Part shown: positions 6,029-51,942 of the stretch, piece after piece | Position numbering within the stretch: the stretch's first letter is position 1 | Layout: each line of letters opens with the position of its first letter | From: Patescibacteria group bacterium | Lineage (GTDB): Bacteria > Patescibacteriota > UBA1384 > UBA12157 > JAENIV01 | Length of the DNA stretch: 64,000 bases | Assembly (NCBI GenBank): GCA_041666185.1 | Contig: JBAYHL010000003.1 | Coordinates: forward strand, 935 to 64,934 | Direction: 5' to 3' | Translations under genes and position numbers: made by a program | The notes under the pieces: model-generated | What the model was told of the DNA's origin: nothing | Seen by the model: only the letters and a program-made list of their open reading frames with translations | Databases searched by the model: none

Positions 6029-6120
6029 TCGCGAGTATTTGACAAATTTATATATTTGTGTTACCATGTAATTAACATCAAAAAAAAGACCTCTTTAAAT
6101 TAAAGGAATTTTTGACTTAA

Positions 6121-6745: not shown

Positions 6746-8464
6746 ATGAACATTACTACTTTACCCAGTAACGGGTTACAAACAAAACCACAGAAAGTTT
6801 TTCCAGCTTTTACCCCACGCTTGAGGATCATTCCTTTAGGTGGTAACGGTGAAATTGGCAAAAATATGATGATTTACGAATATGGCGATGATATTATTAT
6901 TGTCGACTGCGGAATCATGTTTCCTCGTGGTGAAATGCTTGGGATTGATTTTATTATTCCCAATATTTCTTATTTAGAAGAACGTAAAGACAAAATCAGA
7001 GGAATTGTTTTTACTCATGGTCACGAAGACCATATTGGCGCTATTCCTTTTATTTGGCCAAAACTTCAAGCACCAATTTTTGCGACTAAGCTAACAGCTG
7101 GTTTTATTGAAGCGAAAATGACCGAAGCTGGTCAGTCGCCTAATATTCGTTTAGTCAAAGCTGGTGACAAGATTCAACTAGGAGTTTTTAAAATTGAATT
7201 TATTCCATTCTCACACACCTTTTTAGATGATGTTGGTTTGGCTATTGATACTCCGGAAGGGCTAGTGATTCACATTGCCGACTTTAAGTTAGATCAAGAA
7301 AAGTTAGAATCGAAAAAAGTTATTGAAAAATTGGCTCAACTTGGTTCCCAAGGTGTAAAATGTTTGATGCTAGAGTCCACTAATGTGGAATACAAAGGTA
7401 CACCTGTTTCGGAAAATATTATTCATGATACAATTTCATCGATTTTTAAACGGGCTAAAGGCCGATTGATTGTAACTTCTTTTGCTTCTTCATTAGATCG
7501 TATTCAAGGAGTTCTAAATTCAGCCGCGCGAGTTCATAAGAAAGTTGCGATTGCCGGTCGTTCGATGGAAAAAGCCATCAATATTGCTACAAATTTAGGA
7601 TATTTGAAATTACCCCAAGGTGTGATAATCGATTTAAGAAGAATCGAACATATTCCTGATAATGAATTAATTATTTTGTGCACCGGTTCTCAGGGAGAAG
7701 AATATTCTGCTTTAGTTCGAATGGCCAGTGGTGAACACCGCCAAGTCAAAATTAAAAAAGGCGACACGGTGGTTATTTCAGCTTCAGCTATTCCTGGTAA
7801 CGAACGAACTATTTCCGATACAGTAAATAATTTATTTAAAGAAGGAGCAGATGTTTTTTATGGGGGTGAAGCTCAAAGAATTCACTCTTCAGGACATGCT
7901 AAGCGCGATGAATTACAATTGGTTATTGAAACTGTTAAACCAGAATACTTTATTCCAATTCATGGTGAATATCGTCATTTAGTTTTGCATACCAGGTTGG
8001 CGGAATCTTTAACTGTTAAAGAAGGTAACGCTATTGTTTTAGAAGACGGTCAAATTTTTGAAATTCAAAATGGAACCGGACGTATTGCCAAAGAAAAAAC
8101 CGATGCCTCATATGTCTTAGTTGATGGTTTGGGTGTTGGTGATGTAGGTAATATTGTCCTTCGTGATCGTCAAGCAATGGCCAAGGACGGCATTTTTGTC
8201 GTTATCCTTACCATTGATCACGAAAACGGTAAAATCGTTACCTCGCCTGATATAATTTCTCGTGGTTTTATTTACATGCGTGAACGAGAAGATTTAGTTT
8301 ATAAAGCTCGTCAGGAAGTAAGACGAATGTTTTCTCGTCATAACGAAAAATATCCAGCTAACTGGGATTTCATTAAAAAAGCCATTCGTCAGGAAATGGG
8401 TGAATTTCTTTTTAAAGAAACTCAACGCCGTCCAATGATTATCCCGGTCATTATCGAGGTTTAA
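6746..8464 (+). CDS. rnj: Ribonuclease J (metallo-beta-lactamase/beta-CASP RNase)
   Basis: HGHEDHIGAIPF motif and an RNase J-like length of 572 aa. RBS aggag lies upstream. Confidence 0.8.
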   Translation: MNITTLPSNGLQTKPQKVFPAFTPRLRIIPLGGNGEIGKNMMIYEYGDDIIIVDCGIMFPRGEMLGIDFIIPNISYLEERKDKIRGIVFTHGHEDHIGAIPFIWPKLQAPIFATKLTAGFIEAKMTEAGQSPNIRLVKAGDKIQLGVFKIEFIPFSHTFLDDVGLAIDTPEGLVIHIADFKLDQEKLESKKVIEKLAQLGSQGVKCLMLESTNVEYKGTPVSENIIHDTISSIFKRAKGRLIVTSFASSLDRIQGVLNSAARVHKKVAIAGRSMEKAINIATNLGYLKLPQGVIIDLRRIEHIPDNELIILCTGSQGEEYSALVRMASGEHRQVKIKKGDTVVISASAIPGNERTISDTVNNLFKEGADVFYGGEAQRIHSSGHAKRDELQLVIETVKPEYFIPIHGEYRHLVLHTRLAESLTVKEGNAIVLEDGQIFEIQNGTGRIAKEKTDASYVLVDGLGVGDVGNIVLRDRQAMAKDGIFVVILTIDHENGKIVTSPDIISRGFIYMREREDLVYKARQEVRRMFSRHNEKYPANWDFIKKAIRQEMGEFLFKETQRRPMIIPVIIEV

Positions 8465-9186: not shown

Positions 9187-9215
9187 TTGACTTAAGCATA
9201 AATTTGTGATACAAT
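9187..9215 (+). promoter_or_regulatory. Sigma-70-like promoter TTGACT-17-TACAAT
   Basis: ttgact at 9187-9192, 17-nt spacer, tacaat at 9210-9215. It sits about 60 nt upstream of the small ORF. Confidence 0.5.
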
Positions 9216-9276
9216 AGTTTAATATCTCAAGAAAGATAATAAATCTTAAAAGAAAAACAAAAACAAAGGAGAGGGT

Positions 9277-9417
9277 ATGACAACTGAATGTATTGGAGAA
9301 ATTTCTCGCGAGATCAATCAAGAAGCTGTAGCCGAAGTAATCGAGGTTCAAACAGATCCAGAAACTGGTAAATTGGTTGAATTCCACCGAGAATCTTTAG
9401 AAGATGAAACCGCTTAA
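9277..9417 (+). CDS. Small acidic protein, 46 aa (MTTECIGEISREINQEAVAEVIEVQTDPETGKLVEFHRESLEDETA); not in the ORF track
   Basis: RBS aaggagaggg, an ATG, its own promoter upstream and a terminator immediately downstream. Confidence 0.45.
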   Translation: MTTECIGEISREINQEAVAEVIEVQTDPETGKLVEFHRESLEDETA

Positions 9418-9489: not shown

Positions 9490-11667
9490 ATGGCCAAAAG
9501 GAAGTATCGTCGCAAGGGTCAGCGACTTTCTATTTGGGAAGAATTAGATTGGACAATGAACCCCGACACTACTCGTGATGTGGTGGCGGTAGTTTTACTT
9601 ATTTTAGGATTTATTATTTTCTTAGGGATGTTTAATTTAGCTGGTTCTTTTGGCCGCTTTTTTATTAGACTTTCAGCCAATTGGTGGGGAATAATTGGTT
9701 ATATTATTCCTTTTATTTTCTTGGGTTATGGTGCAGTTTTGCTTTTTCCAAATCGTTTTCAACTCAAACCAACATCTTTAGTCGGCGTCGTTTTTTCTTT
9801 AATTTTTGTCCCAGCCATGATTAGTCCTTGGGGAGGAACTATTGGTGGTGGTATTCGGGCTCTTTTTGCTAGTTTTCTTGGTCCTTATGCTTCATTAATT
9901 TTAGTATTTGCTTTAGCAATTGCTTCAATATTAGTTACTTTTAACACTTCCATCAGGGCTTTGTGGCAAAAACTTGGTCCAGGAGCAACTGAAGCAGGTG
10001 TTAAAATTAACGAACCACGAGCTTCAGTTTTTACAACTTTAGGTCGTAAGAATATGCCAGCAACTTACCCTCAGACTTCTGCTAGTGCTGGGGATATTGC
10101 CTGGGAATATCCGCCAGTGGATTTATTAGACGACAATGCTTCCAAAGCAACTCCTGGTAATATTGCTAAAAATGTTGAGATTACTCAAAAAACTCTTAAA
10201 GATTTTGGAATAGAAGTCACAATGGGTGATGTTAATGTTGGCCCAACCGTGACTCAGTACACTTTAAAACCTGGTTTGTCGGTAAAATTAAATCAAATTA
10301 CTGCTCGAGCAAACGATCTTTCTTTGGCTTTGGCTCAGCATCCAATTAGAATTGAAGCGCCAATCCCGGGAAAATCAGCCGTAGGGATTGAAATTCCAAA
10401 TAAAGTCGGGGCAGTTGTTTCGATGAAAGAAATTTTAAATGCTGATGAATTTAAGGCTAAGAAATCTAATCTTGTTCTACCATTAGGTAGAGATGTTGCT
10501 GGCATACCTTATGCGGCTGATCTTAAAAATATGCCCCATCTTTTAATTGCGGGGGCGACCGGTTCGGGTAAGTCAGTTTGTATAAACAGTATAATTACCG
10601 CTCTTTTGTATCAGAATTCTCCTCAAGATTTAAGATTAATTTTAGTTGACCCGAAAAGGGTTGAATTTACTCACTATAATGGCATCCCCCATCTTTTAGC
10701 ACCAGTTGTTTTCGATGTCGATAAAACTATTTCGGCTCTAAAATGGACGGTGGCAGAAATGGATCGTCGTTTTCGACTTCTTCAGGAAACTAATCGTAGA
10801 AATATTGAAGCTTACAATGCTAACCCGCCAAACGGTCGTTTACCTTATATTGTAGTTGTTATTGACGAGTTAGCTGATTTAATGGCTCAGGCGGCTAATG
10901 AAGTTGAAGCGGCAATTGTTCGTTTAGCGCAAATGGCCAGAGCCGTTGGTATTCACTTGATAATGGCAACTCAGCGTCCTTCAGTGGATGTTATCACTGG
11001 TTTAATTAAAGCTAATATCACTAATCGAATTGCTTTTGCCGTTGCTTCTCAAGTTGACTCTAGAACGATTTTGGATTTGTCGGGTGCTGAACGTTTACTT
11101 GGTAATGGAGATATGCTTTATGTTGGCAATGAACTTGGCAAACCTAAACGTATTCAGGGTGTTTTAATTACTGATAAAGAAATCACCAAAGTTGCTGAAT
11201 TTCTAAAATCCAAAAGTACCCCTCAATACGATGAGACAATTTTAAATTATAGGCCCAGTACTGACCGTGGAGCAACAGGTGAACTTTTGGCAGAAGACGA
11301 ACTTTATGAAGATGCTAAGGAAACTGTTGTTATGGCTGGTAAAGCCTCGGCTTCACTACTGCAAAGACGGCTTCGTGTTGGTTATGCCAGAGCAGCTCGG
11401 CTTTTAGATATTTTGGAACAAGAAGGGATTATCGGACCACCTGATGGGGCAAAACCAAGAGACGTTTTGATAGATGCAATTTCCTTAGATCATGAGCGCC
11501 TTCAGGCGAAGGTGCCTATGAATCAAGCTCAACCTCCTATGTCATCACCAAATCCGTCTTATCAAGCTTTTCCTCAGAGTCCAAATTATCCACCTTCTAC
11601 CCCTCCACCTTATCAAAATCCTTACCCACCAAGTCAGGATCAAGATATAGATAACCAAGCTCAATAA
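9490..11667 (+). CDS. ftsK: DNA translocase FtsK/SpoIIIE
   Basis: N-terminal TM helices, Walker A GATGSGKS and the FtsK gamma-like C-terminus. Confidence 0.85.
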   Translation: MAKRKYRRKGQRLSIWEELDWTMNPDTTRDVVAVVLLILGFIIFLGMFNLAGSFGRFFIRLSANWWGIIGYIIPFIFLGYGAVLLFPNRFQLKPTSLVGVVFSLIFVPAMISPWGGTIGGGIRALFASFLGPYASLILVFALAIASILVTFNTSIRALWQKLGPGATEAGVKINEPRASVFTTLGRKNMPATYPQTSASAGDIAWEYPPVDLLDDNASKATPGNIAKNVEITQKTLKDFGIEVTMGDVNVGPTVTQYTLKPGLSVKLNQITARANDLSLALAQHPIRIEAPIPGKSAVGIEIPNKVGAVVSMKEILNADEFKAKKSNLVLPLGRDVAGIPYAADLKNMPHLLIAGATGSGKSVCINSIITALLYQNSPQDLRLILVDPKRVEFTHYNGIPHLLAPVVFDVDKTISALKWTVAEMDRRFRLLQETNRRNIEAYNANPPNGRLPYIVVVIDELADLMAQAANEVEAAIVRLAQMARAVGIHLIMATQRPSVDVITGLIKANITNRIAFAVASQVDSRTILDLSGAERLLGNGDMLYVGNELGKPKRIQGVLITDKEITKVAEFLKSKSTPQYDETILNYRPSTDRGATGELLAEDELYEDAKETVVMAGKASASLLQRRLRVGYARAARLLDILEQEGIIGPPDGAKPRDVLIDAISLDHERLQAKVPMNQAQPPMSSPNPSYQAFPQSPNYPPSTPPPYQNPYPPSQDQDIDNQAQ

Positions 11668-11685: not shown

Positions 11686-13767
11686 ATGGAAGAAACTCAA
11701 ATACAATCAAATTTAGAGGATTTGTATTCAATTTCTCAAATTGCGGCTTCGGCTAAAGATTTACCTAGTATGTGGGGACCGCTGCTGGAAGAAGTTTTAG
11801 CTGTTTTAAAAGTTGATGCCGGATCTCTCATGATTTTAGAAGGCAATGCTCTGGTGAGAAAAGCCGCTCGTGGTTTAGGTGACATTATGGAAGAACCACC
11901 AATTCCTGCATCTTCTGGTGGTGTTTCTTGGAAAGTGGTCAAAAGTCGTAAACCGGTCGTAATTACTGATTTAAGTAAAGAAAAAGTTGCTTCTAAATTT
12001 GTTGAAGAAAATTTTCGTTCTTTAGTGACAGTGCCAATGATGGTTCGCGATCAAGTAATTGGTGTTATGAGTATTTTTACTCGTGAAAAACATCAGTTTT
12101 CTCTAGACGATCTTAACTTTTTTGCAATTATTGCTAATCAGGCGGCTTTAGCAATAATTTCCATTCAATTATCGGAGATTTTGAAAGAAAATCGTCAGCG
12201 GCTTTCAGAATTGGAGGCTCTTAATCAAGTCTCAAAAAGTGTTGCGACGGTTTTTGATTTTGAGGAAACTCTTGATTCAATCTTGGATTCAATTACGACA
12301 ATGTTTTCAAGTGATATTGGTTTAGTAACTTTGTTTGATGGTGAAACTCATCTTCTTTTAGGCAAAAAACCAGCTTACGGTTTAAGCGAACGACAAATTA
12401 ATGATTTTCGATCACGAACAGACGAGGGGGTAATGGGTGAAGCCTTCTGTAAAGGTGTGCCAATTATGGTGGGAAAAATTGATAAGGAAACGGAAGAAGT
12501 TTTAAAAAGAGCCCGTATTACTGGAATTAAAAGTATAATTGCCGCACCCTTAAAGGTTAAGTCTCAAACTTTGGGTGTAGTTCAAATTTTTTCTTCAAAA
12601 GAAAATAATTTTCATTCAAAAGATTTACGTTTATTTTCAATTCTTGCCTCACAAGCGGCTATTGTTGTTAATTCCTCGACAATGTATCGAGAGATTGAAG
12701 AAGAACGTAAAAAAGACGAAGCCCTTTTAACTTCTATTGGCGATGGGGTAATAGCAATAGATAAAAATCAAAAAATAATTCATTTTAATAAAGCGGGTGA
12801 AAAAATTACCGGTTATTTGGCAGAAGAATTACTTGGTGGCGCATTCTTGGAAACCCTAGGTATTTTTAATAAAGAAAAATTACCAGTTGAAGCAAAAGAC
12901 TCTCCTCTTGCAAAGATTTTAAAAGACGGTAATCAAATTATTTCAAAAGATTATTTTTTACGTAAAAGAAATGGTTCTCTTTTTCCGGCTTATCTTTCGT
13001 TGGCAGCCATTTGTGATATTAAAGATGACATTGTTGGGGCGATTGTTGTTTTTCGTGATATTACTTATGAATTTGAGTTGGAGCAAATGAAACAAGAGTT
13101 AATTTCCTTGTCTACTCACGAATTACGAGCGCCTATTACAGCTATTAAAGGTTATTTAGACATGATTTTGTCAGGTGATACAGGTGTTATTAATGAAGAA
13201 ACTAAAGAAACGATTGAGGAAGTCGTCGGTATTAACCGGAGATTAGCTGATTTAGTAGATGATTTATTAAACGTTGGCCGGATCGAACAAGGTAAAATAA
13301 CTATCAAACCAGAACAAATTGATCTTACGAGTTTAATTAGTCAAACGGTTCGTGAATATCAGCCGCAAGCTAAAAATAAAAAACTTGAAATTATTTTTCA
13401 TGATAAATCAATTCCGAAAATTAAAGCCGATTCGGTTCGTGTCCGTCAGGTTTTAAACAATTTAATAAGCAATGCAATCAAATACACTATGCAAGGTTCA
13501 ATCGAAATCAGCGTTCAAGCCAGTGACAAGGAAGTTACTTGTCAAGTGAAAGACACTGGTATTGGTATTAGTAAAGATGCTCAAAAAAAGCTTTTTGGTA
13601 AATTTTATCGAGTTAAAAATGCAAAAACGGTCCAAATTACTGGTACTGGATTAGGACTTTGGATCACCCAAAAACTTTTAGAAATGATGGGCGGGAAGGT
13701 TTGGTTGGAATCAGTTGAAAATAAAGGTTCAACATTTTACTTTACTTTACCTGTTTACACTGCTTGA
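11686..13767 (+). CDS. Cytoplasmic sensor histidine kinase (GAF-GAF-PAS-HisKA-HATPase_c)
   Basis: H-box HELRAPITAIKGY, G2 box GTGLGLWITQKLLEMMGG, no TM segments. Confidence 0.8.
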   Translation: MEETQIQSNLEDLYSISQIAASAKDLPSMWGPLLEEVLAVLKVDAGSLMILEGNALVRKAARGLGDIMEEPPIPASSGGVSWKVVKSRKPVVITDLSKEKVASKFVEENFRSLVTVPMMVRDQVIGVMSIFTREKHQFSLDDLNFFAIIANQAALAIISIQLSEILKENRQRLSELEALNQVSKSVATVFDFEETLDSILDSITTMFSSDIGLVTLFDGETHLLLGKKPAYGLSERQINDFRSRTDEGVMGEAFCKGVPIMVGKIDKETEEVLKRARITGIKSIIAAPLKVKSQTLGVVQIFSSKENNFHSKDLRLFSILASQAAIVVNSSTMYREIEEERKKDEALLTSIGDGVIAIDKNQKIIHFNKAGEKITGYLAEELLGGAFLETLGIFNKEKLPVEAKDSPLAKILKDGNQIISKDYFLRKRNGSLFPAYLSLAAICDIKDDIVGAIVVFRDITYEFELEQMKQELISLSTHELRAPITAIKGYLDMILSGDTGVINEETKETIEEVVGINRRLADLVDDLLNVGRIEQGKITIKPEQIDLTSLISQTVREYQPQAKNKKLEIIFHDKSIPKIKADSVRVRQVLNNLISNAIKYTMQGSIEISVQASDKEVTCQVKDTGIGISKDAQKKLFGKFYRVKNAKTVQITGTGLGLWITQKLLEMMGGKVWLESVENKGSTFYFTLPVYTA

Positions 13768-16262: not shown

Positions 16263-16342
16263 TTTGATAGATATATGGCTCGCTTGGGTCTGGTTTAAAA
16301 ATTAAATCATTGAAAATTATTAGGAGGGATAGAAGGGAAAAA

Positions 16343-17371
16343 ATGGCAACTCACAGTGAAGGGGCAAACAAAGGAAAACAAGAAGCTCTCGAGATGGCTC
16401 TAGGGCAAATCGAGCGACAATTTGGTACGGGGGCAATCATGCGTTTCGGTCAAAAAGAAAGATTACAGGTTGCTTCGATTCCTAGCGGTTCAATTTCTCT
16501 AGATTTAGCTTTAGGTGTTGGCGGTTTTCCTCGCGGGAGAATTATTGAAATTTTTGGACCTGAATCAACTGGTAAATCAACCTTGGCAATGCATGCTATT
16601 GCTGAAGCTCAAAAACAGGGTGGTATTGGTGCTTTCATTGACGCTGAACACGCTTTCGATCCTGACTATGCAAGAAAAATAGGTATTAATGTTGAAGAAT
16701 TATTAATTTCCCAACCAGATACAGGCGAACAAGCTTTAGAAATTGCTGAAACGTTGGTTCGTTCTAATGCAGTTGATGTAATTGTTGTTGATTCAGTAGC
16801 TGCTTTGGTTCCACGAGCAGAAATTGAAGGTGAGATGGGTGACGCTCAAATGGGTATGCAAGCCAGGTTGATGTCACAAGCGTTAAGAAAACTTACTGGG
16901 GCAATTTCCCGTTCTAAAGCGGTGGTAATTTTTATCAATCAGCTTCGAATGAAAATTGGAGTAATGTTTGGTAATCCTGAAACAACTGCTGGCGGTATGG
17001 CTTTGAAGTTTTATTCTTCAATTCGTCTTGATATTCGTCGAACAGAACAAATTAAAGAAGGTGATATTCCTATTGGCAATAGGGTTAAAGTAAAAATTGT
17101 TAAAAATAAAGTTGCCCCGCCTTTTCGGACGGCCGAATTTGACTTAATGTTTAGTGAAGGTATTTCTAAAGAAGGCGATTTATTAGATATAGCAGTTAAA
17201 ATGGGAATAATTAGTAAGGCTGGTTCTTGGTATCAAATGGGTGCTCAGAAATTGGGTCAAGGTCGTGAAGGTGTCAAGCAATTTTTAAGAGAAAATCCTA
17301 AAATTGCCAAATCGATTGAAGAAAAAGTAATGGTCAAAGATGAGAAAGAAGAGAAGGCGGATAAGGAGTAA
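16343..17371 (+). CDS. recA: Recombinase RecA (an alternative TTG start lies at 16310)
   Basis: Walker [10 protein letters not shown] and the highly conserved RecA core. RBS aggagg lies upstream. Confidence 0.9.
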
Positions 17372-22832: not shown

Positions 22833-24575
22833 ATGAATGACCAAGTCGAAGAGATAAAAAAAAGAATTGATGTTGTTGATCTAATTTCAAATTATTTAAC
22901 CCTAAAAAAAGCTGGGGTTAATTATAGAGCAGTTTGTCCTTTTCATAATGAAAAAACACCTTCTCTAATGATATCCCCAGAAAAACAAATTTGGCATTGT
23001 TTTGGTTGCTCTGAAGGTGGTGACATCATTACTTTTATAATGAAGATGGAAAATTTAGAATTTCCAGAAGCTTTAAAAATGTTAGCTGACCGAGCAGGGG
23101 TGATTTTAAAACGCCGAACTCAAGACGAGATCTCCCAAGTGCAACCTGATAAAAAAAGTCGGCTTTTTACTGTCAACGCATTTGCTGCGAAAGTTTTTAA
23201 TAAAATTTTAATTACTCATCCGGCGGGAAAAATAGCCTTAGAATACTTAAAAAAAAGAAAACTAACAGATTTAACTATTAAAGAATTTATGATTGGTTAC
23301 GGGCCTTCATCGCGAGCGATGATGCAATTATTAAAGAAGCATGGTTTTTCCGACCAAGAGCTTCAGGGTGCTGGTAACCCCGATAAGTTTTACAAAAGAA
23401 TTATTTTTCCCATTCGTGATGTTATGGGTAATACAATTGCTTTTACTGGTCGTGTGTTAGATTCTAATCAAGAACCAAAATATTTAAACACTCCCGAGAC
23501 GGTAATTTTTCATAAGAGTCGAGTTCTTTATAATCTTGAGAAAGCCAGAGGAGCAATCAGAACCGAGAAGGCTACTGTTGTTGTCGAAGGTCAAATGGAT
23601 GTAATCGCTTCTTGGCAGTCAGGGGTTAAAAATGTTGTTGCTACTTCTGGGACAGCTTTAACTCCCGATCATTTGCAAATTCTTTATCGTTACAGCCCAA
23701 ATATTATTTTCGCTTTTGATTCTGATACAGCCGGTCTTACAAGTGCCAAAAAAGCATACGAGATGGCAATTAGTGAAAGTTTTAATGTTAAAATGGTAAC
23801 TTTGGGTGAGTTTAAAGATCCGGGAGAAATGATTGCTGAAGATCCCAAGCTTTGGTTGGAAGCTGTCAAAAATGCTCGATCAATTATAGATTGGTATTTC
23901 GAATTAGCCTTAAAAAATCATCCGTCAGGTCTTGAAGCAACCGACAAGAAAGAAATTGCTAAAGAAGTTTTGCCAATTTTGAAAAAAATTCCTGATACAA
24001 TTGAGCAGGCTCATTATGTTGGGCTTTTAGCCAAAAAATTGGCAGTTTCTGAGCAAATTATTTTCGATGCTCTGACAAAAGTTACTCCCGAAAAGTCGAA
24101 AAAACAAAAAGAAATCACGCAAGAAAAAAAACCGAAAATATCCGCTCAAGAATTGCTTTTGTCAATTTTATTTAAAAATCCGGTTAAAATTAAAGAAGCC
24201 GGAAAAGCACTTCAGGCAGAAGACTTCCAAGACACTGATTTGAAAATGATTTACAATTATCTCTTGGAATGGTATAATAAAAATAATCAAAGAACCGATA
24301 TTCAGTTAACTGAAAAAGAACTTAAAGAGTCTTTGCGAAAAGATCTTAATCGTCAATTGCAGATTAAAATTGACGAACTTATTTTGATTACCAATGAACA
24401 GGTAGATGATGATCTTATGGAGGATTGGCAAGTAGTTTTAGAAAAAGTCCAAAGCGATAAGAAAGAAGCCTTAAAAGATTATTATTCTCAAGAAATTAAA
24501 AAAGCTGAAATATCTAACGATCTCGAACGGCTAAAAAAATTAATTAAGGAGTTCCAGGATGCCATATCAAAGTAA
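22833..24575 (+). CDS. dnaG: DNA primase DnaG
   Basis: CHC2 zinc finger [25 protein letters not shown] and a TOPRIM region. Confidence 0.85.
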
Positions 24576-25758
24576 TTACAAAACTTCTCGGGCGGCTAAA
24601 TCTTCTAGGGACAGACAAGACAAATCTTCAAAAGAAAGATTGAGCTTGAAGGCAAAAATGAGCAAGAAAAAAGTTTCGCCTTCAAAACGCAAAAAGGAAG
24701 TTGAAATTAAGTTTCCAGAAAACTTAAAAAAGCTTTTGGAAAAAGGTCATCAGGCAGGCTTTGTTACTTACCAAGAAATTTTACAAGCTTTTGAAGAACC
24801 GGAAAAAAAGGTTCCTCTTTTAGATGCTTTGTATGATGAATTTTTTCTTCAAGGAATTGATGTTAAAGAAGGCCGAAAGTTATTGGAAATTGAAGACGAG
24901 CCAACCCAAAAAGTTGGTGAGCTAAAAGATATTTCCGATGATTCAGTAAGAATGTATTTGCGAGAAATTGGCCGAATTCCTCTTTTAAAACCGGATGAAG
25001 AGGTTCGTTTAGCCAAACGTATCGAAGCAGGTGACGAAACGGCTAAGAAAAAATTAGCTGAGGCCAATCTACGATTGGTAGTTTCGATTGCTAAAAAATA
25101 TATTGGCCGCGGACTTTCACTTCTAGATTTGATCCAAGAAGGAAACACCGGACTTTTACGAGCAGTTGTTAAATTTGATTATCATAAAGGTTATAAATTT
25201 TCGACTTATGCAACCTGGTGGATTAGGCAAGCAATTACCAGGGCAATTGCTGATCAAGCCAGAACTATTAGAATTCCTGTTCATATGGTTGAGACAATCA
25301 ACAAGCTTATTCGTACCCAAAGACAATTAGTTCAAGATTTGGGTCGAGAGCCATTACCTGAAGAAATTGCGGCGGAAATGGAAATACCGGTTGAAAAAGT
25401 TGAACATATTATAAAAATTTCTCAAGAAACAGTTTCTTTAGAAACACCAGTTGGTGAAGAAGATGATTCGCGTTTGGGTGATTTTATTGAAGACAAAGAA
25501 TCTCTTTCACCTGAAGAAAATGCTATTTATCAATTAATGAAAGGCCACGTTGGTGAATCGTTAATTTTTCTTTCACCAAGAGAACAAAAAATTCTTAAAA
25601 TGAGATTTGGTTTAGAAGACGGTCGCACCCATACTTTAGAAGAAGTTGGTAAAGAATTTGGTGTGACTCGAGAACGTATTCGTCAAATTGAAGCTAAGTC
25701 TTTACAGAAGCTCAAGAAAAATGAGCAATCTCAAAAACTAAAAGATTACTTAAGATAA
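24559..25758 (+). CDS. rpoD: RNA polymerase sigma factor RpoD (sigma-70)
   Basis: Regions 2 to 4 are recognisable ([18 protein letters not shown]...[18 protein letters not shown]). It overlaps dnaG by 17 nt, the classical dnaG-rpoD arrangement. Confidence 0.85.
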
Positions 25759-46952: not shown

Positions 46953-48437
46953 TTAATAATGAATGTAGACCGGTGTACCAACGTCATCCCAGTTAAAGAT
47001 CCATTCAGCGTCAGAAGTGGCCATATTAACACAACCATGAGACATTGGGTGACCAAAATTACTGTGCCAATAGGTACCATGAATAGAATAATCACCAGAA
47101 AACCAACTAATGTAAGGAACACCTGGTAGATAGTAGTCAGGTCCATCCATTAAAGCTGCACGATCTTTACCATAAACACTAAATTCGCCTGTAGGAGTCG
47201 CGTAACCGCTTTTACCAGTCGAGACTAAGAACTGGTTAACCAAAGTGCTGCCTTCGAAAGCGTATAAAGTTTGTTCAGAAAGATTAATATCAATATATTT
47301 ACTACCATAACGACCTGGTTGAGCGTGAGGATATATAGTTTTTTGTCCTCGTGGAATAGTAGAAGTGACCATTGCAAAACTGCTACTTTGTGAGCGAGCT
47401 AAAGCGTCTCTGATTTGAGCTGTTAAGGTGTCAGTATCGACTCCACGGCCATCTTGGCCCTCGGAAATAACATTGCCAGTACCATCTTCAACTTCACGAT
47501 CAGTGGCAGGAACTTCAACTTGCTCGGCTACCCAATTAACAAAAGCATTTGGTGAAATGGAAGTAGCAAGTTTATCACCATCTTCATTAAATTTAATCCA
47601 AGAGCTGATTTCTCTGCTTCCTGCTGACCAAGAAGAGGTGTCAAAAGTCACGGTAATAGGCGCAGCCGTGAGATATTTTTCTGCTTGAGATTTGGCTTCA
47701 GTAGTGCCCTCGTCGTTTATAGCTGGTTCTAAATCGGAAGTTTGCATAACAATAGATCCTGAAATATTACCAGAATTAATAAGGGCAGTTAAATCATTCT
47801 TTAATTGATCCTTATTTAACCCGCGGCCTTTTTCAGAAGGAGTAAGGTTAACTTGACCATTTTCAATTGAAAGAGTTGCATTTTTTGGTTCTTTTTCGAC
47901 AACAGAAGATAATTGTGATAAATACTCATTAAACTTTACTTCATCAATTTGAGGTTTAATCTCTAAAACAAAACCACTAATTGCTAATTGATAATTTTCT
48001 TGTAATTTTTCTTTAAGACTCTCTCCACGGCCATAATTAAAAGCTTGGTCTAAAATTTTATCTGTATCAAAAGTAATTCCCATCTCAGAAAGGGTAGGTT
48101 TTACGGTCTGATCGTTATAAGTGATTTCTGGACCATTATTTTCTAAAATTTTAATTTTTTCTTCAACTTGGGTTTTAGCTTGTTCGTGAGTTAGGCCGCC
48201 AACTTTAATGCCGGCAACCATTACCTTAGGGTAAATTTTATCAGCGTAAGCACGATTAAAATACCAAACACCGCTGATTAGAGTAGTAATTACCAAAAAA
48301 CTTATACCAATTTTAATATAAGTTTGTTTAGAAATTACCAAAGATTTCTTTTTGGTTGTAGCTTTTGATTGTTTAGTTTTTGTTTTACCACTAGGCAAAA
48401 TGTTTAATTTTGTCGCGGTAGTTGTTAAGTTGTTCAT
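46953..48437 (-). CDS. L,D-transpeptidase (YkuD family), membrane anchored
   Basis: C-terminal YkuD domain with the catalytic ...SHGCVNM... motif. N-terminal TM helix. Confidence 0.8.
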   Translation of the reverse strand: MNNLTTTATKLNILPSGKTKTKQSKATTKKKSLVISKQTYIKIGISFLVITTLISGVWYFNRAYADKIYPKVMVAGIKVGGLTHEQAKTQVEEKIKILENNGPEITYNDQTVKPTLSEMGITFDTDKILDQAFNYGRGESLKEKLQENYQLAISGFVLEIKPQIDEVKFNEYLSQLSSVVEKEPKNATLSIENGQVNLTPSEKGRGLNKDQLKNDLTALINSGNISGSIVMQTSDLEPAINDEGTTEAKSQAEKYLTAAPITVTFDTSSWSAGSREISSWIKFNEDGDKLATSISPNAFVNWVAEQVEVPATDREVEDGTGNVISEGQDGRGVDTDTLTAQIRDALARSQSSSFAMVTSTIPRGQKTIYPHAQPGRYGSKYIDINLSEQTLYAFEGSTLVNQFLVSTGKSGYATPTGEFSVYGKDRAALMDGPDYYLPGVPYISWFSGDYSIHGTYWHSNFGHPMSHGCVNMATSDAEWIFNWDDVGTPVYIHY

Positions 48438-48477
48438 TGCCCCTCCACTCCGTGTTTTGTGTTCCTTTTTATTTTTT

Positions 48478-48552
48478 GTTTTAAGGTATCTGTTTTTATG
48501 ACATTAAGACAGTATATCAAAAAAATCGTCTTCTGTCAAGATGGAAGACGAA
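48478..48552 (-). promoter_or_regulatory. Consensus promoter TTGACA-17-TATACT and conserved leader for ldt (minus strand). The -35 lies in the loop of the tRNA operon terminator CGTCTTC...GAAGACG.
   Basis: On the minus strand: TTGACA (plus 48534-48539), 17-nt spacer, TATACT (plus 48511-48516). The leader is nearly identical to the one at 50732..50790. Confidence 0.55.
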
Positions 48553-48555
48553 AAT

Positions 48556-48589
48556 TGGTGCGCGGAGCAGGATTCGAACCTGCAACCGG
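48556..48589 (-). pseudogene. tRNA 3' fragment (variable region, T-arm GCAGG-TTCGAAT-CCTGC, acceptor 3' strand, CCA) lacking a 5' half
   Basis: Minus strand reads CGGTTGCAGGTTCGAATCCTGCTCCGCGCACCA. No complementary acceptor 5' strand or D/anticodon arms lie upstream. Confidence 0.5.
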
Positions 48590-48615
48590 GCGTGTATGGT
48601 TATCTTTTTTGCTTT

Positions 48616-48690
48616 TGGTGGGCGCGGATGGATTCGAACCATCAACCGATCGGATATAAGCCGATTGCTCCGCCGTTGAGCTACGCGCCC
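48616..48690 (-). tRNA. tRNA-Ile with anticodon TAT (UAU), CCA encoded
   Basis: Acceptor GGGCGCG/CGCGCCC. D-arm GCTC-AACGGCG-GAGC. Anticodon stem ATCGG/CCGAT with loop CTTATAT. T-arm GATGG-TTCGAAT-CCATC. Discriminator A, then CCA. Confidence 0.7.
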
Positions 48691-48733
48691 ACCAGCAACA
48701 AAAAAGAAAAGACGCCTGTTGAAATCTACTAAC

Positions 48734-48762
48734 ATTTTATCCTGTTTTTCTAATAATTTCAA
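48734..48762 (-). promoter_or_regulatory. Promoter for the minus-strand tRNA-Ile transcript (TTGAAA-17-TAAAAT on the minus strand)
   Basis: Plus strand shows tttcaa at 48757-48762 and atttta at 48734-48739. Confidence 0.35.
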
Positions 48763-48777
48763 TCATTTTACTGTTTT

Positions 48778-48878
48778 GTCCTGTGCTACTCGGCACAGGA
48801 CTTGACCCCCACACCTATTGTCGATTTGGTTGTTTTGGATCACAAAACAAAGTTTGTTGATGAAATAGGTGTGGGGGT
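48778..48878. repeat. Two adjacent long palindromes: perfect 9-bp hairpin GTCCTGTGC-tactcg-GCACAGGAC, and 15-bp inverted repeat ACCCCCACACCTATT / AATAGGTGTGGGGGT separated by 44 nt
   Basis: Seen directly. The right arm abuts the -35 of the promoter at 48878. Confidence 0.6.
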
Positions 48879-48906
48879 TGACATTGATTGTCCTTGCCAC
48901 TAATAT
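48878..48906 (+). promoter_or_regulatory. Consensus promoter TTGACA-17-TAATAT, followed by a structured leader of about 160 nt ahead of CDS 49072
   Basis: ttgaca at 48878-48883 and taatat at 48901-48906. Confidence 0.5.
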
Positions 48907-49071
48907 CTGTTATTTTTGATTTGCTATAGTTTTACGCAAAAATCTTCAGGGACGATCTTACGCACAAATTTAGGGTCCGCCTTGGCTTGACGCCAGGCGA
49001 GATGGGTAGGGTCACCAGTCCGGATTATGGCACAGTTAATAGTAGCTTAAAAATTTATTATAAGGAGTAAA

Positions 49072-50187
49072 ATGAAAAGAAACATATCGAAAATGTTAAA
49101 ACGCTGTTTGATTTATAGTTTGATTTTGATTTTTGGTTTGCCATTTGGAGCAATTGCTTTCGGTGCGGATAAGGCTTCGGCATCAGAAAAAAAGGTCAGT
49201 GTATCGAAAGCCGAGTTTTCAAAAAAAACCACTTCCGAACCAGAGAAAGCAATAGTTCAAAAAGACATTACATCTCCACTGCCTCCAAAAATCGAAGGTT
49301 TTGCACAAGATAGAGTTTATCTTCAAGGCCAAAAAATTGATTTAAACATGTTCTTCAAAGGAGAGAAAAATTTGGACGTTTGGGCAAATACAAGTGTCCT
49401 TGATCCAAGTTTTCCAGAAAAATTAAATGCCTTACCTGTTGGAGATGGTATTTGGCACCTTGAAACACCAAAATTGACCGAAAATCTAAATATAAAAACT
49501 TCTGGTTTTACGATTTATGCCACAGATCCAAGTGGTAATAGTATTAATCAACAGGTTAAAATTGTCTTAAAACAGTCGCCAAAGATGGCAAATGTTACCC
49601 ACAGTCTTTCAACTGACAACGAGTTAACTCTTAGTTGGAATTATTCTAAATTAGTTGAGCAGTATTTGGTTGAATGGAATATTTATGGCGAAAGTAATGT
49701 TTCACAAAAAGTTTTAAATGGTAATTTAACTGGCACGAAGATTAATAATCTCCAATCAGGAACATCTTATGTTGTTAAGGTTTTGATTCTAAAAAAAGGT
49801 GAAAAGGGGAGAGTTACAGAGCTTAATGTAAAAACTTCCGGAATTTCACCAAAAAGTGTTATTGGAACTTCGTCTATTAATAACACATTAACAACAAAGA
49901 CCACGCCTTCAATTGGAAACGGTGTTGCGACGACTAAAAGAGTTGCTCAAACACCAAAATCTGATGCAAATGTAACGCCAGAGGCTACTACTAGCCCCAC
50001 TCCTAGCCCGACACCTTCCGAAAAAGGTGCGGCAGCAGGTGGTTGGAGTAAACTCTTGGTTGCTTTAAGTATTTTAATTATTGCTGCTGGCGCAGCTCTT
50101 GGTGGGTATTATGGTTATGAATGGTTAATGCTTCGTTCGAAAGACAAAGAAGATAGAGAACCACCAGAATCAAACAGTCGTTGGTGA
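49072..50187 (+). CDS. Secreted/surface protein with an N-terminal signal, an FN3-like domain, an S/T/P-rich linker and a C-terminal TM anchor
   Basis: Signal-like N-terminus. C-terminal hydrophobic helix LLVALSILIIAAGAALGG followed by a charged tail. Confidence 0.55.
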   Translation: MKRNISKMLKRCLIYSLILIFGLPFGAIAFGADKASASEKKVSVSKAEFSKKTTSEPEKAIVQKDITSPLPPKIEGFAQDRVYLQGQKIDLNMFFKGEKNLDVWANTSVLDPSFPEKLNALPVGDGIWHLETPKLTENLNIKTSGFTIYATDPSGNSINQQVKIVLKQSPKMANVTHSLSTDNELTLSWNYSKLVEQYLVEWNIYGESNVSQKVLNGNLTGTKINNLQSGTSYVVKVLILKKGEKGRVTELNVKTSGISPKSVIGTSSINNTLTTKTTPSIGNGVATTKRVAQTPKSDANVTPEATTSPTPSPTPSEKGAAAGGWSKLLVALSILIIAAGAALGGYYGYEWLMLRSKDKEDREPPESNSRW

Positions 50188-50209
50188 TCACTCACATTGT
50201 ATGTAAACA

Positions 50210-50240
50210 AAAGCCCCGTAATTTGACGGGGTTTTTGTTT
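50210..50240 (+). terminator. Rho-independent terminator
   Basis: Stem CCCCGT/ACGGGG plus T-run. Confidence 0.7.
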
Positions 50241-50277
50241 ATTATATAGTATACTATATATAGTAGGTGCATAGTTA

Positions 50278-50700
50278 ATGATGAAATTTAATCAAAATAA
50301 AATATTGTCTAAAATTACTAAGGTAGGGGTTTATCTTGGAGTTTTTTGGGTGCTTTTTTTGTTGGGCCGGGCTATTTGGCAAAATTGGGATTTAAAACAT
50401 TCAATTTACAAGTTAAATGAACAAATTGTGATTCTGAACCAACAAAAAAAAGATTTAGAAAATCTTAATTTATATTATCAGTCGGATTCTTTTAAAGAAT
50501 TAGAGGCGCGTAAACTATTGGGACTTAAAAAATCAGGAGAAAAACTGGTTATTTTACCAATAGAAACTCCTAAAGCAGAATCATCGGCTGCTAATAGTTT
50601 TCCGGAACAACTCAATAAAGAAAAAGAAACAGTGGCGGGAGTAACAGCGCCAACAAGAATTCCTAACTGGCTTTTATGGTGGCAATACTTTACTAAGTAA
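50278..50700 (+). CDS. FtsB/DivIC-like septum formation initiator
   Basis: N-terminal TM helix, a coiled coil, and the ELEARKLLGLKKSGEKLVIL motif. Confidence 0.55.
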   Translation: MMKFNQNKILSKITKVGVYLGVFWVLFLLGRAIWQNWDLKHSIYKLNEQIVILNQQKKDLENLNLYYQSDSFKELEARKLLGLKKSGEKLVILPIETPKAESSAANSFPEQLNKEKETVAGVTAPTRIPNWLLWWQYFTK

Positions 50701-50731
50701 AAATCCTTAAGTTCTCTCGAATATCGCAACA

Positions 50732-50790
50732 TTGACAGGCGGTCTTTTTTGTGATATACTGTCTTAATGTCATAAAAAGACACCTTAAAA
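50732..50790 (+). promoter_or_regulatory. Consensus promoter TTGACA-17-TGaTATACT (extended -10) and conserved leader for the CAP-domain gene. Inverted copy of the ldt promoter module.
   Basis: ttgaca at 50732-50737 and tatact at 50755-50760. Leader GTCTTAATGTCATAAAAAGACACCTTAAAAC. The RBS/start context GGAGGGGCAATGAA is shared with ldt. Confidence 0.55.
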
Positions 50791-50874
50791 CAAAAATAAA
50801 AGGAAAGCGTCCCCCTACGCCCTGACGGGCTTCGGAGGGACTTCCCCGATATTGCATCGGGGAGCGGAGGGGCA

Positions 50875-51942
50875 ATGAATAAAATTCAATTCAAAGCAAT
50901 TAAATATATATTTGGTCTTGTTGTTTTTATTAGTACTCTTATTTTTAATATTTCTTTTGCGAGCGCGGCAACTTATTCAGCTGATACCTTAGTTAGTTTA
51001 ACTAATGAATCTAGATCTCAAAACGGATTAGGCAATCTATTAGCAAATTCTAAATTATCTAATGCTGCTTATGCGAAAGCTCAAGACATTTTAGCTAAAG
51101 ATTATTTTGCTCACAATTCCCCAGATGGTAAAACCCCTTGGGATTTTATTAATGAATCTGGTTATGTTTATACTTATGCTGGCGAAAACTTAGCAATTGG
51201 TTACAGTGACGCTAATGAACTTTTTACAGCTTGGATGAATTCACCAACTCATAGAGAAAATATCTTAGGTCCAAACTATCGTGAAATTGGTATTGCGGTG
51301 GTTTCTGGTGAATTTCAAGGTGCTGAGACGATTGTTGCTGTTCAGGAATTTGGTACGGCTGCAGAAGGAAATTTAGCTGAACAACAAGTTGCTGCTCAGC
51401 TTTCAACACCAACACCTTCGCCATCAGTTACTGCTTCGCCAACATCTATTCCAACAGGAGCAAAAAGTTTTGAATTTATTAAAGATAAAACCGCTTTTAC
51501 TCCTAACAGCATTTTTTCTGGTGAGGAAGTAGAATTTAAAGTTACAATTTCTGGTGAAGTTAAATCTCTTGAAGCTCAGGTATTTGATAAAAAATATAAT
51601 CTCTTAGAAGCAGCTAGCGTAACTGGTTCTGGTAAAGAAAAAACATATACTTTAGATCAAAAAATTGAAAATAATGGCACTTCCGAAGTTAAGATTTTGG
51701 CGACTGATAATAATGGTAATTCGGACACTTTAAGTTTCGGTACTTTAAATGTTAAAGAAACGGTGATTAGTAAAGATCAGCCTGAAAAAATTAGTTTAAT
51801 TGCCGGTTTTAAGCAATCTTTCAAATTGTACTGGTTTGTTTATTTAGCAGTTTCAGTTTTAATTGCTTTAGCAATTGCTTTTTACTTTATTTCAAAAAGA
51901 AGCAGATTTAATGGTGGTCTTCTTACTTCTTGGCGTTTCTAA
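50875..51942 (+). CDS. CAP/SCP (YkwD-like) domain secreted protein with a C-terminal membrane anchor
   Basis: CAP motifs ...KDYFAHNSPDGKTPWDFI...GENLAIGY...WMNSPTHRENIL. C-terminal TM helix. Confidence 0.65.
   Translation: MNKIQFKAIKYIFGLVVFISTLIFNISFASAATYSADTLVSLTNESRSQNGLGNLLANSKLSNAAYAKAQDILAKDYFAHNSPDGKTPWDFINESGYVYTYAGENLAIGYSDANELFTAWMNSPTHRENILGPNYREIGIAVVSGEFQGAETIVAVQEFGTAAEGNLAEQQVAAQLSTPTPSPSVTASPTSIPTGAKSFEFIKDKTAFTPNSIFSGEEVEFKVTISGEVKSLEAQVFDKKYNLLEAASVTGSGKEKTYTLDQKIENNGTSEVKILATDNNGNSDTLSFGTLNVKETVISKDQPEKISLIAGFKQSFKLYWFVYLAVSVLIALAIAFYFISKRSRFNGGLLTSWRF

Follow-up and report, generated by a model that had tools for sequence, protein, structure and literature searches.

In a 64,000-nucleotide stretch of contig JBAYHL010000003.1 (hereafter the window; positions 935 to 64,934 of the forward strand, GenBank assembly GCA_041666185.1 of a Patescibacteria group bacterium), two genes for envelope proteins are preceded by nearly the same promoter and leader, arranged as inverted copies 2.2 kb apart. 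One copy precedes ldt, an L,D-transpeptidase gene on the minus strand, and the other precedes a gene for a CAP (SCP/YkwD-like) domain protein on the plus strand. The locus raises the question of why two non-coding modules of one genome should be so alike, and whether their likeness marks a shared regulatory device. Comparison with related genomes indicates that the two copies follow a promoter and leader convention of the lineage, and that the identity in excess of it rather likely reflects recombinational copying from one site to the other.

Anatomy of the two inverted copies

The two arms of the repeat cover 48462-48539 and 50732-50806 (approximately 78 nt each) and are about 85% identical in an alignment that contains one- and two-base indels. 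A preliminary description of this DNA had placed inverted repeats of about 50 bp at 48478-48527 and 50741-50790; their existence is borne out, while their length was underestimated. It had also pointed to a perfect TTGACA-17-TATACT promoter in each copy, and this pattern was indeed found at two sites of the 64-kb window, 48539-48511 (minus strand) and 50732-50760 (plus strand), against a chance expectation of 0.04. A test for sigma-70-type promoters matched 11 of 12 positions with a 17-nt spacer at both copies, and no other such sites were present in the window. Both promoters contain a TG one base 5' of the -10 element (TGaTATACT). The ldt promoter (48511-48539, minus strand) consists of the -35 element TTGACA at 48539-48534, a 17-nt spacer with a T-run, the TG at 48519-48518 and the -10 element TATACT at 48516-48511. 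The CAP promoter (50732-50760, plus strand) has the same TTGACA and 17-nt spacer, with the TG at 50752-50753 and TATACT at 50755-50760. Transcription is predicted to start at A48504 in the ldt copy, 7 nt past the -10 element, and at A50767 in the CAP copy.

Downstream of the promoters, the leader box ACCTTAAAACAAAAA is exact at both copies, and the 24-mer TATACTGTCTTAATGTCATAAAAA occurs in these two places of the window only, even when up to 3 mismatches are allowed (expected number 0), in the same two modules. The ldt leader (48447-48504, minus strand) is A-rich and unstructured, begins with AUGUCAUAA and holds the box CTTAAAACAAAAA. The shared part of the CAP leader (50761-50806, plus strand), delimited by the arm alignment and the recurrence of the box, contains TTAATGTCATAAAAA, CTTAAAACAAAAA and TAAAAGGAA in turn. 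Past the shared TAAAAGGAA, the ldt copy has 10 A-rich bases and then GGAGTGGAGGGGCAATG; the CAP copy has a GC-rich segment of about 55 nt (50809-50863) and then GGAGCGGAGGGGCAATG. The start context GGAGGGGCAATGAA, claimed earlier to be identical in the two transcripts, is exact in both copies and abuts the start codons at 48437 (minus strand) and 50875 (plus strand); in the ldt copy, this context with its Shine-Dalgarno sequence occupies 48433-48446 (minus strand). The longest exact block between the copies measures 26 nt, from the TG to +20, and the adjoining spacer matches at 8 of 15 positions.

Both promoters point outward, the similarity of the arms continues to the start codons, and the arms enclose a tRNA-Ile(UAU) gene, a gene for an fn3-domain membrane protein and a gene for a DivIC-like protein. 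The genes that the copies precede were correctly named: the ldt open reading frame (ORF; 46953-48437, minus strand, 494 aa) carries the Pfam domains PG_binding_4 and YkuD, and the CAP ORF (50875-51942, plus strand, 355 aa) carries the Pfam domain CAP and has orthologs in relatives. The ldt protein is 100% identical to one from an NCBI Patescibacteria metagenome-assembled genome (MAG); an exact-protein look-up of the CAP protein returned no record. An assembly artefact was discarded as the source of the repeat, since exact repeats do not exceed 26 nt and the sequence upstream of ldt is identical in a separate assembly (L001), which independently confirms this side (run SRR6484324). A scan of a genome collection for TATACTGTCTTAATGTCAT gave a single match, in an unrelated Muribaculaceae MAG, the source genome lying outside that collection. 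Judged by sequence, each copy is plausibly a strong promoter of sigma-70 type with a leader, serving ldt in one case and the CAP gene in the other.

Two further observations concern the transcript ends. The predicted 5' ends, 48496-48504 (minus strand) and 50767-50775 (plus strand), both read AUGUCAUAA, which encodes Met-Ser-stop, 7 nt past the -10 element. The CAP promoters of two relatives (L096 and L011) read AUGUCUUAA, and most relatives have AUAUC, for which reason a leaderless mini-ORF at AUGUCAUAA is probably incidental. The unusual Shine-Dalgarno sequence GGAGGGG is found at four genes of the window (1197, 28763, 48446 on the minus strand, and 50866). Their products are all large proteins, secreted or of the cell surface, namely a BNR/Ig-like protein of 1607 aa, a giant protein of 6018 aa, ldt and the CAP protein. 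Most other genes have AAGGAGG-like sequences.

Lineage convention and probable local homogenisation

The window was compared with metagenomic contigs that carry ldt or CAP orthologs (denoted by L numbers) and represent at least ten related genomes. A metagenome scan with the ldt alignment was dominated by generic YkuD domains, the true orthologs among its matches being only L009-L013. Identity of ldt to the window protein ranges from 44% to 68%, the closest CAP protein is 67% identical, and the ldt homologs include proteins named Candidatus Berkelbacteria. Gene order is kept in the relatives: ldt, the divergent fn3 gene, DivIC, sometimes extra genes, and then CAP.

All ldt and CAP orthologs have the same promoter layout: cTTGACa is followed by a 17-nt spacer, at whose end stand a T-run and TGn, and then by TATAaT, N3 and TTAATrTC. 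On the 3' side of TTAATrTC their leaders continue with an A-run, an A-rich stretch and GGAGGGG near the start codon. The column consensus of 20 modules, 18 of them from relatives, reads TTGACa / ..aatTTT.TG. / TATAaT / Att / tTAATatc / ..AAAA. A weight matrix trained on only the 18 ldt and CAP modules of the relatives, with window sites counted above 12 bits, recovered three sites in the window: the ldt copy (45.0 bits), the CAP copy (43.7 bits) and a third site at 9187 (39.1 bits), the maximum in shuffled sequence being 10.7. The third promoter and leader (9187-9276, plus strand) reads TTGACT-17-TGaTACAAT-AGT-TTAATATC ... CTTAAAAGAAAAA ... GGAGAGGG and is followed by an operon of a 46-aa ORF (9277-9417), FtsK (9490-11667) and a histidine kinase with GAF and PAS domains (11686-13767). 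The UDG/RNase J operon at 6039 is preceded by a start-region motif of this kind, shifted in register by one base, and the downstream block is missing from tRNA promoters (TTGAT-17-TAAAAT). The box CTTAAAACAAAAA, with at most 1 mismatch, is carried by five leaders, those of ldt in the window, L010 (where it is exact) and L004, that of CAP in the window and that of the operon at 9187. The context GGAGGGGCAATG, which precedes the ldt start codon in L004, L008, L091 and L092, is taken to be the ancestral start context of the ldt orthologs.

Since the same design is seen at the orthologs and at the ORF46-FtsK operon, most of the features shared by the two copies are, on this comparative evidence, a promoter and leader convention of the Berkelbacteria-like lineage and do not single out envelope genes. 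The consensus promoter signals fit the primary sigma factor encoded in the window (rpoD; 24559-25758), which has Sigma70 regions 1.1, 1.2, 2, 3 and 4. Lack of further copies and of leader conservation in orthologous loci had been named in the preliminary description as what would refute a regulatory element; this lack is not borne out, as parts of the leader (TTAATrTC and the box CTTAAAACAAAAA) are seen again at orthologous loci and in the third operon of the window.

The convention accounts for the design and leaves the degree of identity to be explained. Among 190 pairs of modules, the ldt and CAP copies of the window form the most similar pair (0.85, compared with a mean of 0.668 and a standard deviation of 0.041). 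By hand count, 31 of 54 positions agree between the promoter at 9187 and the ldt copy, a value at the between-genome baseline, so that genome-wide drift does not explain the ldt and CAP pair. In the seven genomes that have both promoters, identity of ldt and CAP modules within genomes exceeds that between genomes (exact permutation P = 0.0018; 0.007-0.01 without the window), and the result stands when the columns of the -35 element, the TG and the -10 element are omitted.

The ldt orthologs have TATAAT and the CAP orthologs mostly TATACT, and the CAP promoter of the closest CAP relative, L096, reads TTGACAGAAGGCATTTTTTTTGATATACTATCTTAATGTCTTAAAAAAGCGAGGGGTTATG. The ldt promoter of the window is 0.78 identical to this L096 CAP promoter over 54 nt including the spacer, which equals its identity to its own partner, and no pairing of it with the promoters of ldt orthologs rises above 0.74. 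The leader of the window CAP gene measures 114 nt, in comparison with 28-57 nt in seven CAP orthologs, and can be aligned over its whole length, GC-rich part and GGAGGGGCAATG included, with the L008 ldt leader; its local alignment score is 46 with this ldt leader and 18-29 with the leaders of CAP orthologs. Both copies are mosaics, in which the promoter-proximal part is of CAP type and the distal leader of ldt type. The extra identity is best explained, in view of this mosaic of ldt-type and CAP-type sequence, by copying between the sites, and homogenisation by gene conversion between the inverted copies, superimposed on the generic lineage design, is the reading that we favour, though with reservation. 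RecA is encoded in the window, at 16310-17371.

Under the favoured reading, gene conversion between inverted copies 2.2 kb apart would have produced one chimeric module. Its proximal part would be of CAP type (TATACT.TCTTAATGTC), and its distal leader and start context of ldt type (CTTAAAACAAAAA..AAGGAA..[GC hairpins]..GGAGnGGAGGGGCAATG); the GC-rich hairpins would have been lost later from the ldt copy or never received there. Each arm would act as a strong housekeeping promoter of sigma-70, extended -10 type. Its -35 element would occupy the loop of the terminator hairpin of the preceding unit (tRNA-Ile at ldt, DivIC at CAP), and the U-tract of this hairpin would double as the T-rich spacer of the promoter. 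The arm would be completed by the conserved initiation region TTAATGTC, by a leader that is A-rich and unstructured, and by a strong GGAGGGG ribosome-binding site. Similarly high, constitutive expression of both secreted envelope proteins, each insulated from its upstream unit, is the probable consequence.

Several points weigh against copying. The within-genome excess in the other genomes is modest (0.56 versus 0.49 at variable positions) and could result in part from genome-specific base composition or a genome-specific factor. The exact block of 26 nt beside a spacer with 8 of 15 matches also fits purifying selection on the start region. The string TAATGTCwTwAAAA is common to the distant L011, at both genes, which exceeds what is expected of a recent neutral copy. 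The chimera would take two conversion tracts or more, or else a single copying event with a subsequent deletion. Promoter use, start sites and termination are themselves predictions from sequence, and the number of class members refers to the 64-kb window, which the search for copies covered.

The alternative that survives best is a specific cis-regulatory site, in which an operator TTAATGTCAT, the box CTTAAAACAAAAA or both would be read by a dedicated protein or small RNA and would define a small envelope and division regulon (ldt, CAP and the FtsK operon). The start-region motif and the 13-mer box do stand at fixed leader positions both in distant relatives and before FtsK, for example in L010 ldt (with the exact 13-mer), L004 ldt and the third leader of the window (box at 9245), and unrelated matches to the box are rare outside leaders (about 7 in 0.73 Mb of DNA, both strands). 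TAATGTCTT is present at both genes of L011, and tRNA promoters are devoid of the operator motif. However, a similar motif, shifted by one base, also stands before the UDG/RNase J operon, the operator segment has neither dyad symmetry conserved between the copies nor a stable RNA fold, and no candidate regulator gene adjoins the loci. Moreover, few mRNA promoters outside the class were available as controls, and the motif may be a general mRNA promoter or start consensus of the lineage. Such a regulon is possible and, on balance, unlikely.

A variant of this idea retains the convention and changes the cause of the match between the copies. A lineage-specific promoter class would combine the terminator around the -35 element, the start element TTAATrTC (AUGUCAUAA here) and the box CTTAAAACAAAAA, read by a factor that couples ldt, CAP and the FtsK operon, and the copies would be kept matched by co-evolution with this factor, not by neutral conversion. 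The within-genome co-variation of ldt and CAP promoters fits co-evolution with a factor as well, and we regard this variant, too, as doubtful.

Terminator hairpins and leader structure

The -35 element of ldt lies in the loop of a terminator-like hairpin (48527-48550, minus strand; CGTCTTC/GAAGACG; -9.6 kcal/mol) with a 7-bp stem and a 10-nt loop, and the adjacent seven T residues (48519-48525) form the promoter spacer. With 10 nt, the loop is longer than the 3-8 nt allowed in the terminator scan, which for this reason did not list the hairpin. Directly 5' of the hairpin is a tRNA-Ile(UAU)-like 3' half (48556-48597, minus strand), which extends from anticodon base A35 to CCA, was detected as direct repeat D1 and was characterised by comparison with L089/L090 and L007. 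It follows the tRNA-Ile gene itself (48616-48690, minus strand; anticodon UAU by ARAGORN; Rfam tRNA, 68.4 bits), the unit predicted to end at the hairpin. The overlap of terminator and promoter, described earlier as a -35 element within the terminator hairpin of the upstream tRNA, is real and recurs in relatives, with the amendment that the adjoining element is a tRNA fragment and not the tRNA. At the CAP copy, a weak 5-bp hairpin, ATCGC/GCGGU (50723-50743, plus strand; -3.9 kcal/mol in a fold that includes flanking pairs), surrounds the -35 element 23 nt past the DivIC stop codon and is followed by a T-run (50745-50750). Where the spacers of the two window copies differ, the differing bases are exactly those of the 3' stem strands.

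Where a tRNA-Ile gene lies 5' of ldt in the same orientation, hairpins enclosing the -35 element were found in L011 (-7.7 kcal/mol), L012 (-5.2 kcal/mol) and L089/L090 (-11.9 kcal/mol), and the CAP promoter of L096, located after DivIC, has one of -10.1 kcal/mol. Promoters with no co-oriented upstream unit, or with a separate terminator, gave 0 to -4 kcal/mol. The stems differ in sequence, being CGTCTTC/GAAGACG in the window, AATCACC/GGTGATT in L011, AATACC/GGTATT in L012, CGCC/GGCG in L089/L090 and ATGCC/GGCAT at L096 CAP; their conservation was judged by inspection, as the stems do not share one alignment register. A literature search on terminator-promoter overlap found no direct precedent. 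In four relatives with a divergent tRNA-Ile (L004, L008, L009 and L092), the promoters of ldt and the tRNA share overlapping -35 hexamers in the palindrome CTTGACATCAAG, located at 5146-5157 in L004, approximately 69-80 in L008, 4832-4843 in L092 and approximately 4095-5001 in L009, with TTGACA on one strand and TTGATG on the other. L010 has a similar sequence, CTTGACTTCAAG, the matching tRNA promoter not being among those listed. These palindromes were considered as operators and rejected as such; they represent back-to-back promoters of ldt and the divergent tRNA-Ile with overlapping -35 hexamers.

A shared cis-regulatory RNA element, suggested in the preliminary description, finds no support in folding. 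The ldt leader has a predicted energy of -3.1 kcal/mol (z = +0.72), with 153 of 200 shuffled sequences folding at least as well, and Rfam gave no match in either leader, whether the whole window was searched at the gathering threshold or the segment 48300-51000 at E <= 10. Structure is present in the GC-rich insert of the CAP copy (50809-50863, plus strand), which forms two hairpins, H1 (50809-50841) and H2 (50843-50863), with a fold z of -3.14. Related inserts occur in the ldt leaders of L008 (z = -6.7), L003 (-5.0) and L091 (-2.5), and all four share the junction motifs UAC, UUCGG, GGACUUCC and GGAGnGGAGGGGCA, with different stem sequences. Of 24 sites with GGAGGGG near start codons in the window and related loci, only 4 are preceded by 70 nt with a G+C content above 50%, and these are the sites with the inserts.

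These hairpins form the basis of a further alternative, control at the RNA level by GC-rich hairpins and Shine-Dalgarno-like repeats (of riboswitch, thermometer or stabiliser type), with the A-rich part serving only as a spacer. The common junction motifs and the recurrence of folded inserts in three ldt leaders are in its favour, and the C-rich 5' strands of the insert could pair alternatively with the Shine-Dalgarno sequence. Nevertheless, the best folds of the leaders of window CAP, L008 and L091 leave the Shine-Dalgarno sequence free (50866-50872 in window CAP), the hairpin leaders have no Rfam match, and covariation could be assessed on four sequences only, which MAFFT and RNAalifold aligned poorly, with a few double changes and differing hairpin registers. 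The insert is missing from most orthologous leaders and from the ldt copy of the window, and it therefore cannot explain the repeat. RNA-level control is an improbable answer for the pair, and a role of the insert in mRNA stability or translation is possible.

The last alternative takes the arms for transposon ends or for the terminal repeats of an inverton, with a 2.2-kb interior that moves or flips. It is suggested by the inverted repeats at this distance and by the variable orientation of tRNA-Ile beside ldt among relatives, which shows that rearrangements do occur in the region. It is most improbable and was rejected, first on gene content, as neither a transposase nor an invertase is encoded within the segment or next to it, the interior holding tRNA-Ile, the fn3 membrane protein and DivIC and the flanks ldt and CAP. 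Synteny is conserved as well, the order ldt/fn3/DivIC/CAP and the promoter positions being kept in relatives that lack the high identity. The promoters, moreover, face outward with similarity reaching the start codons, so that inversion would not change the expressed gene. No recombinase other than RecA was found among the window ORFs scanned, which were all but about ten small ones.

Neighbouring RNA elements and comparison with known systems

Separate from the two copies, the 5' leader of the fn3/DivIC operon (48920-49058, plus strand; promoter 48878-48906) is a conserved structured RNA. Its homologs were found at L096 1287-1441, L004 4879-4989 (minus strand), L091 1717-1839 (minus strand), L092 3718-3819 (minus strand), L094 89-199 (minus strand), L006 4961-5068 (minus strand) and L010 1939-2053 (minus strand). 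The leader comprises the helices P1 (GCUAUAGUUU, with a partner ending in CUAUGGC), P1b (GGAC/GUCC) and P2 (GAUCUUAC/GUAGGGUC), followed by an apical hairpin that varies and by UUUAAU..AGCUUAAAAAUU ahead of the Shine-Dalgarno sequence. Over seven sequences, paired cells make up 94.5%, compared with 29-50% in slid controls; six pairs show double (compensatory) changes, and the covariation score of 0.312 versus 0.167 was reached by 0 of 500 shuffles. A covariance model matched 5' of the fn3 gene, or at the equivalent position beside ldt, in related loci. Its matches outside the training set were L010 (50 bits), L003 and L089/L090. Beyond these, L011 and L012 gave two marginal matches (E 0.5-0.75), and approximately 75 unrelated loci had no match. 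The leader had no match in Rfam 15 and is a candidate for a new cis-regulatory RNA. Upstream of the fn3 promoter lie a 7-bp hairpin, CCTGTGC/GCACAGG (48780-48799, plus strand), and a perfect 15-bp inverted repeat, ACCCCCACACCTATT / AATAGGTGTGGGGGT (48805-48878, plus strand), with a 44-nt loop and a 3' arm that abuts the fn3 -35 element. In the closest relative, L096, a reverse-transcriptase gene lies 5' of fn3.

Several tRNA-Ile(UAU) genes of the window and its relatives show an arrangement in which a gene is split after U34 (...GUCUU / insert / AUACAC...) by a short insert that carries another complete and different tRNA-Ile(UAU). The gene of L089 (approximately 1100-1282) corresponds to the uninterrupted allele of L090 (1118-1192) with a 105-nt insert, L007 has several nested tRNA-Ile layers at 7500-7870 (minus strand), and further split sites are located at L012 5711-5870 and L095 3850-4060 (minus strand). 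In the window, the intact tRNA (48616-48690, minus strand) is flanked by the well-kept 3' half at 48556-48597 and a decayed 5' half at about 48709-48733. By comparison with the split genes, the segment at 48556-48597 is identified as the remnant of a split outer tRNA-Ile(UAU). The tRNA-Ile insert does not represent a group I intron. A 2026 paper on Patescibacteria tRNA introns (PMC13011429) does not mention tRNA-Ile(UAU) splitting, and a literature search on split tRNA-Ile in the Candidate Phyla Radiation (CPR) returned no direct precedent. Other elements seen in relatives and not in the window are group I introns adjoining tRNA-Met genes downstream of CAP, LOOT RNA (RF03000, 65 bits) in the gap that separates DivIC from the following gene, and an FtsH intein with a LAGLIDADG domain; the loci of these intron, LOOT and intein elements are L096 4315-4506 (plus strand), L004 679-918 (minus strand), L007 5595-5718 (minus strand) and L097 2417-5500 (plus strand).

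The repeated element is of an ordinary kind (a strong promoter, a leader and a terminator) in an unstudied lineage, with probable local homogenisation added. To our knowledge, nothing is established experimentally on promoters, terminators or leaders of Berkelbacteria-like Patescibacteria. The loci provide a comparative picture of such promoters, in which consensus sigma-70 elements are joined to a start-region block and an A-rich leader box. They illustrate how a very small genome may pack its signals, with a terminator hairpin around the -35 element of the next promoter, and offer a probable example of regulatory DNA, not genes, homogenised between neighbouring loci. Current ideas are not overturned; the use of the results lies in guidance for annotation and in a weight matrix for promoter calling in the lineage, together with the caution that leader identity within a genome need not imply a riboswitch or a regulon.

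Several known systems resemble parts of this locus. Invertons likewise have inverted repeats associated with promoters, whereas here there is no invertase, the promoters are contained in the arms and point outward, and the DNA between the arms carries housekeeping genes. The 5' untranslated region stabilisers and STAB-SD elements of Bacillus likewise combine GC-rich hairpins with repeated Shine-Dalgarno-like GGAG just 5' of the real Shine-Dalgarno sequence, and an RNase J gene is present here too (6746-8464); unlike the 5' stem-loops of Bacillus, the hairpins considered here stand beside the Shine-Dalgarno sequence instead of at the 5' end, occur in one copy of two and are predictions from sequence. 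The extended -10 promoters of E. coli and Bacillus (TTGACA-17-TGnTATAAT) have the same -35 element, 17-nt spacer, TG at -15/-14 and near-consensus -10 element, to which the promoters of this lineage add TTAATrTC at about -3 to +5 and then an A-run, across at least 10 related genomes. In inverted duplicates that evolve in concert through gene conversion, such as tufA/tufB of Salmonella or rRNA operons, copies within a genome are similarly closer to each other than to their orthologs, and the inverted orientation, mosaic composition and presence of RecA match as well; the unit here is a non-coding promoter-leader of 80-140 nt and not a gene, and the longest exact block of 26 nt is short for RecA-dependent exchange. 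Finally, intrinsic terminators that abut or overlap the next promoter in compact genomes also place a GC-rich hairpin and U-tract just before that promoter, whereas in the present design the two signals are interleaved, with the -35 element as the hairpin loop and the U-tract as the promoter spacer, and the design recurs with different stems at two genes and in several genomes.

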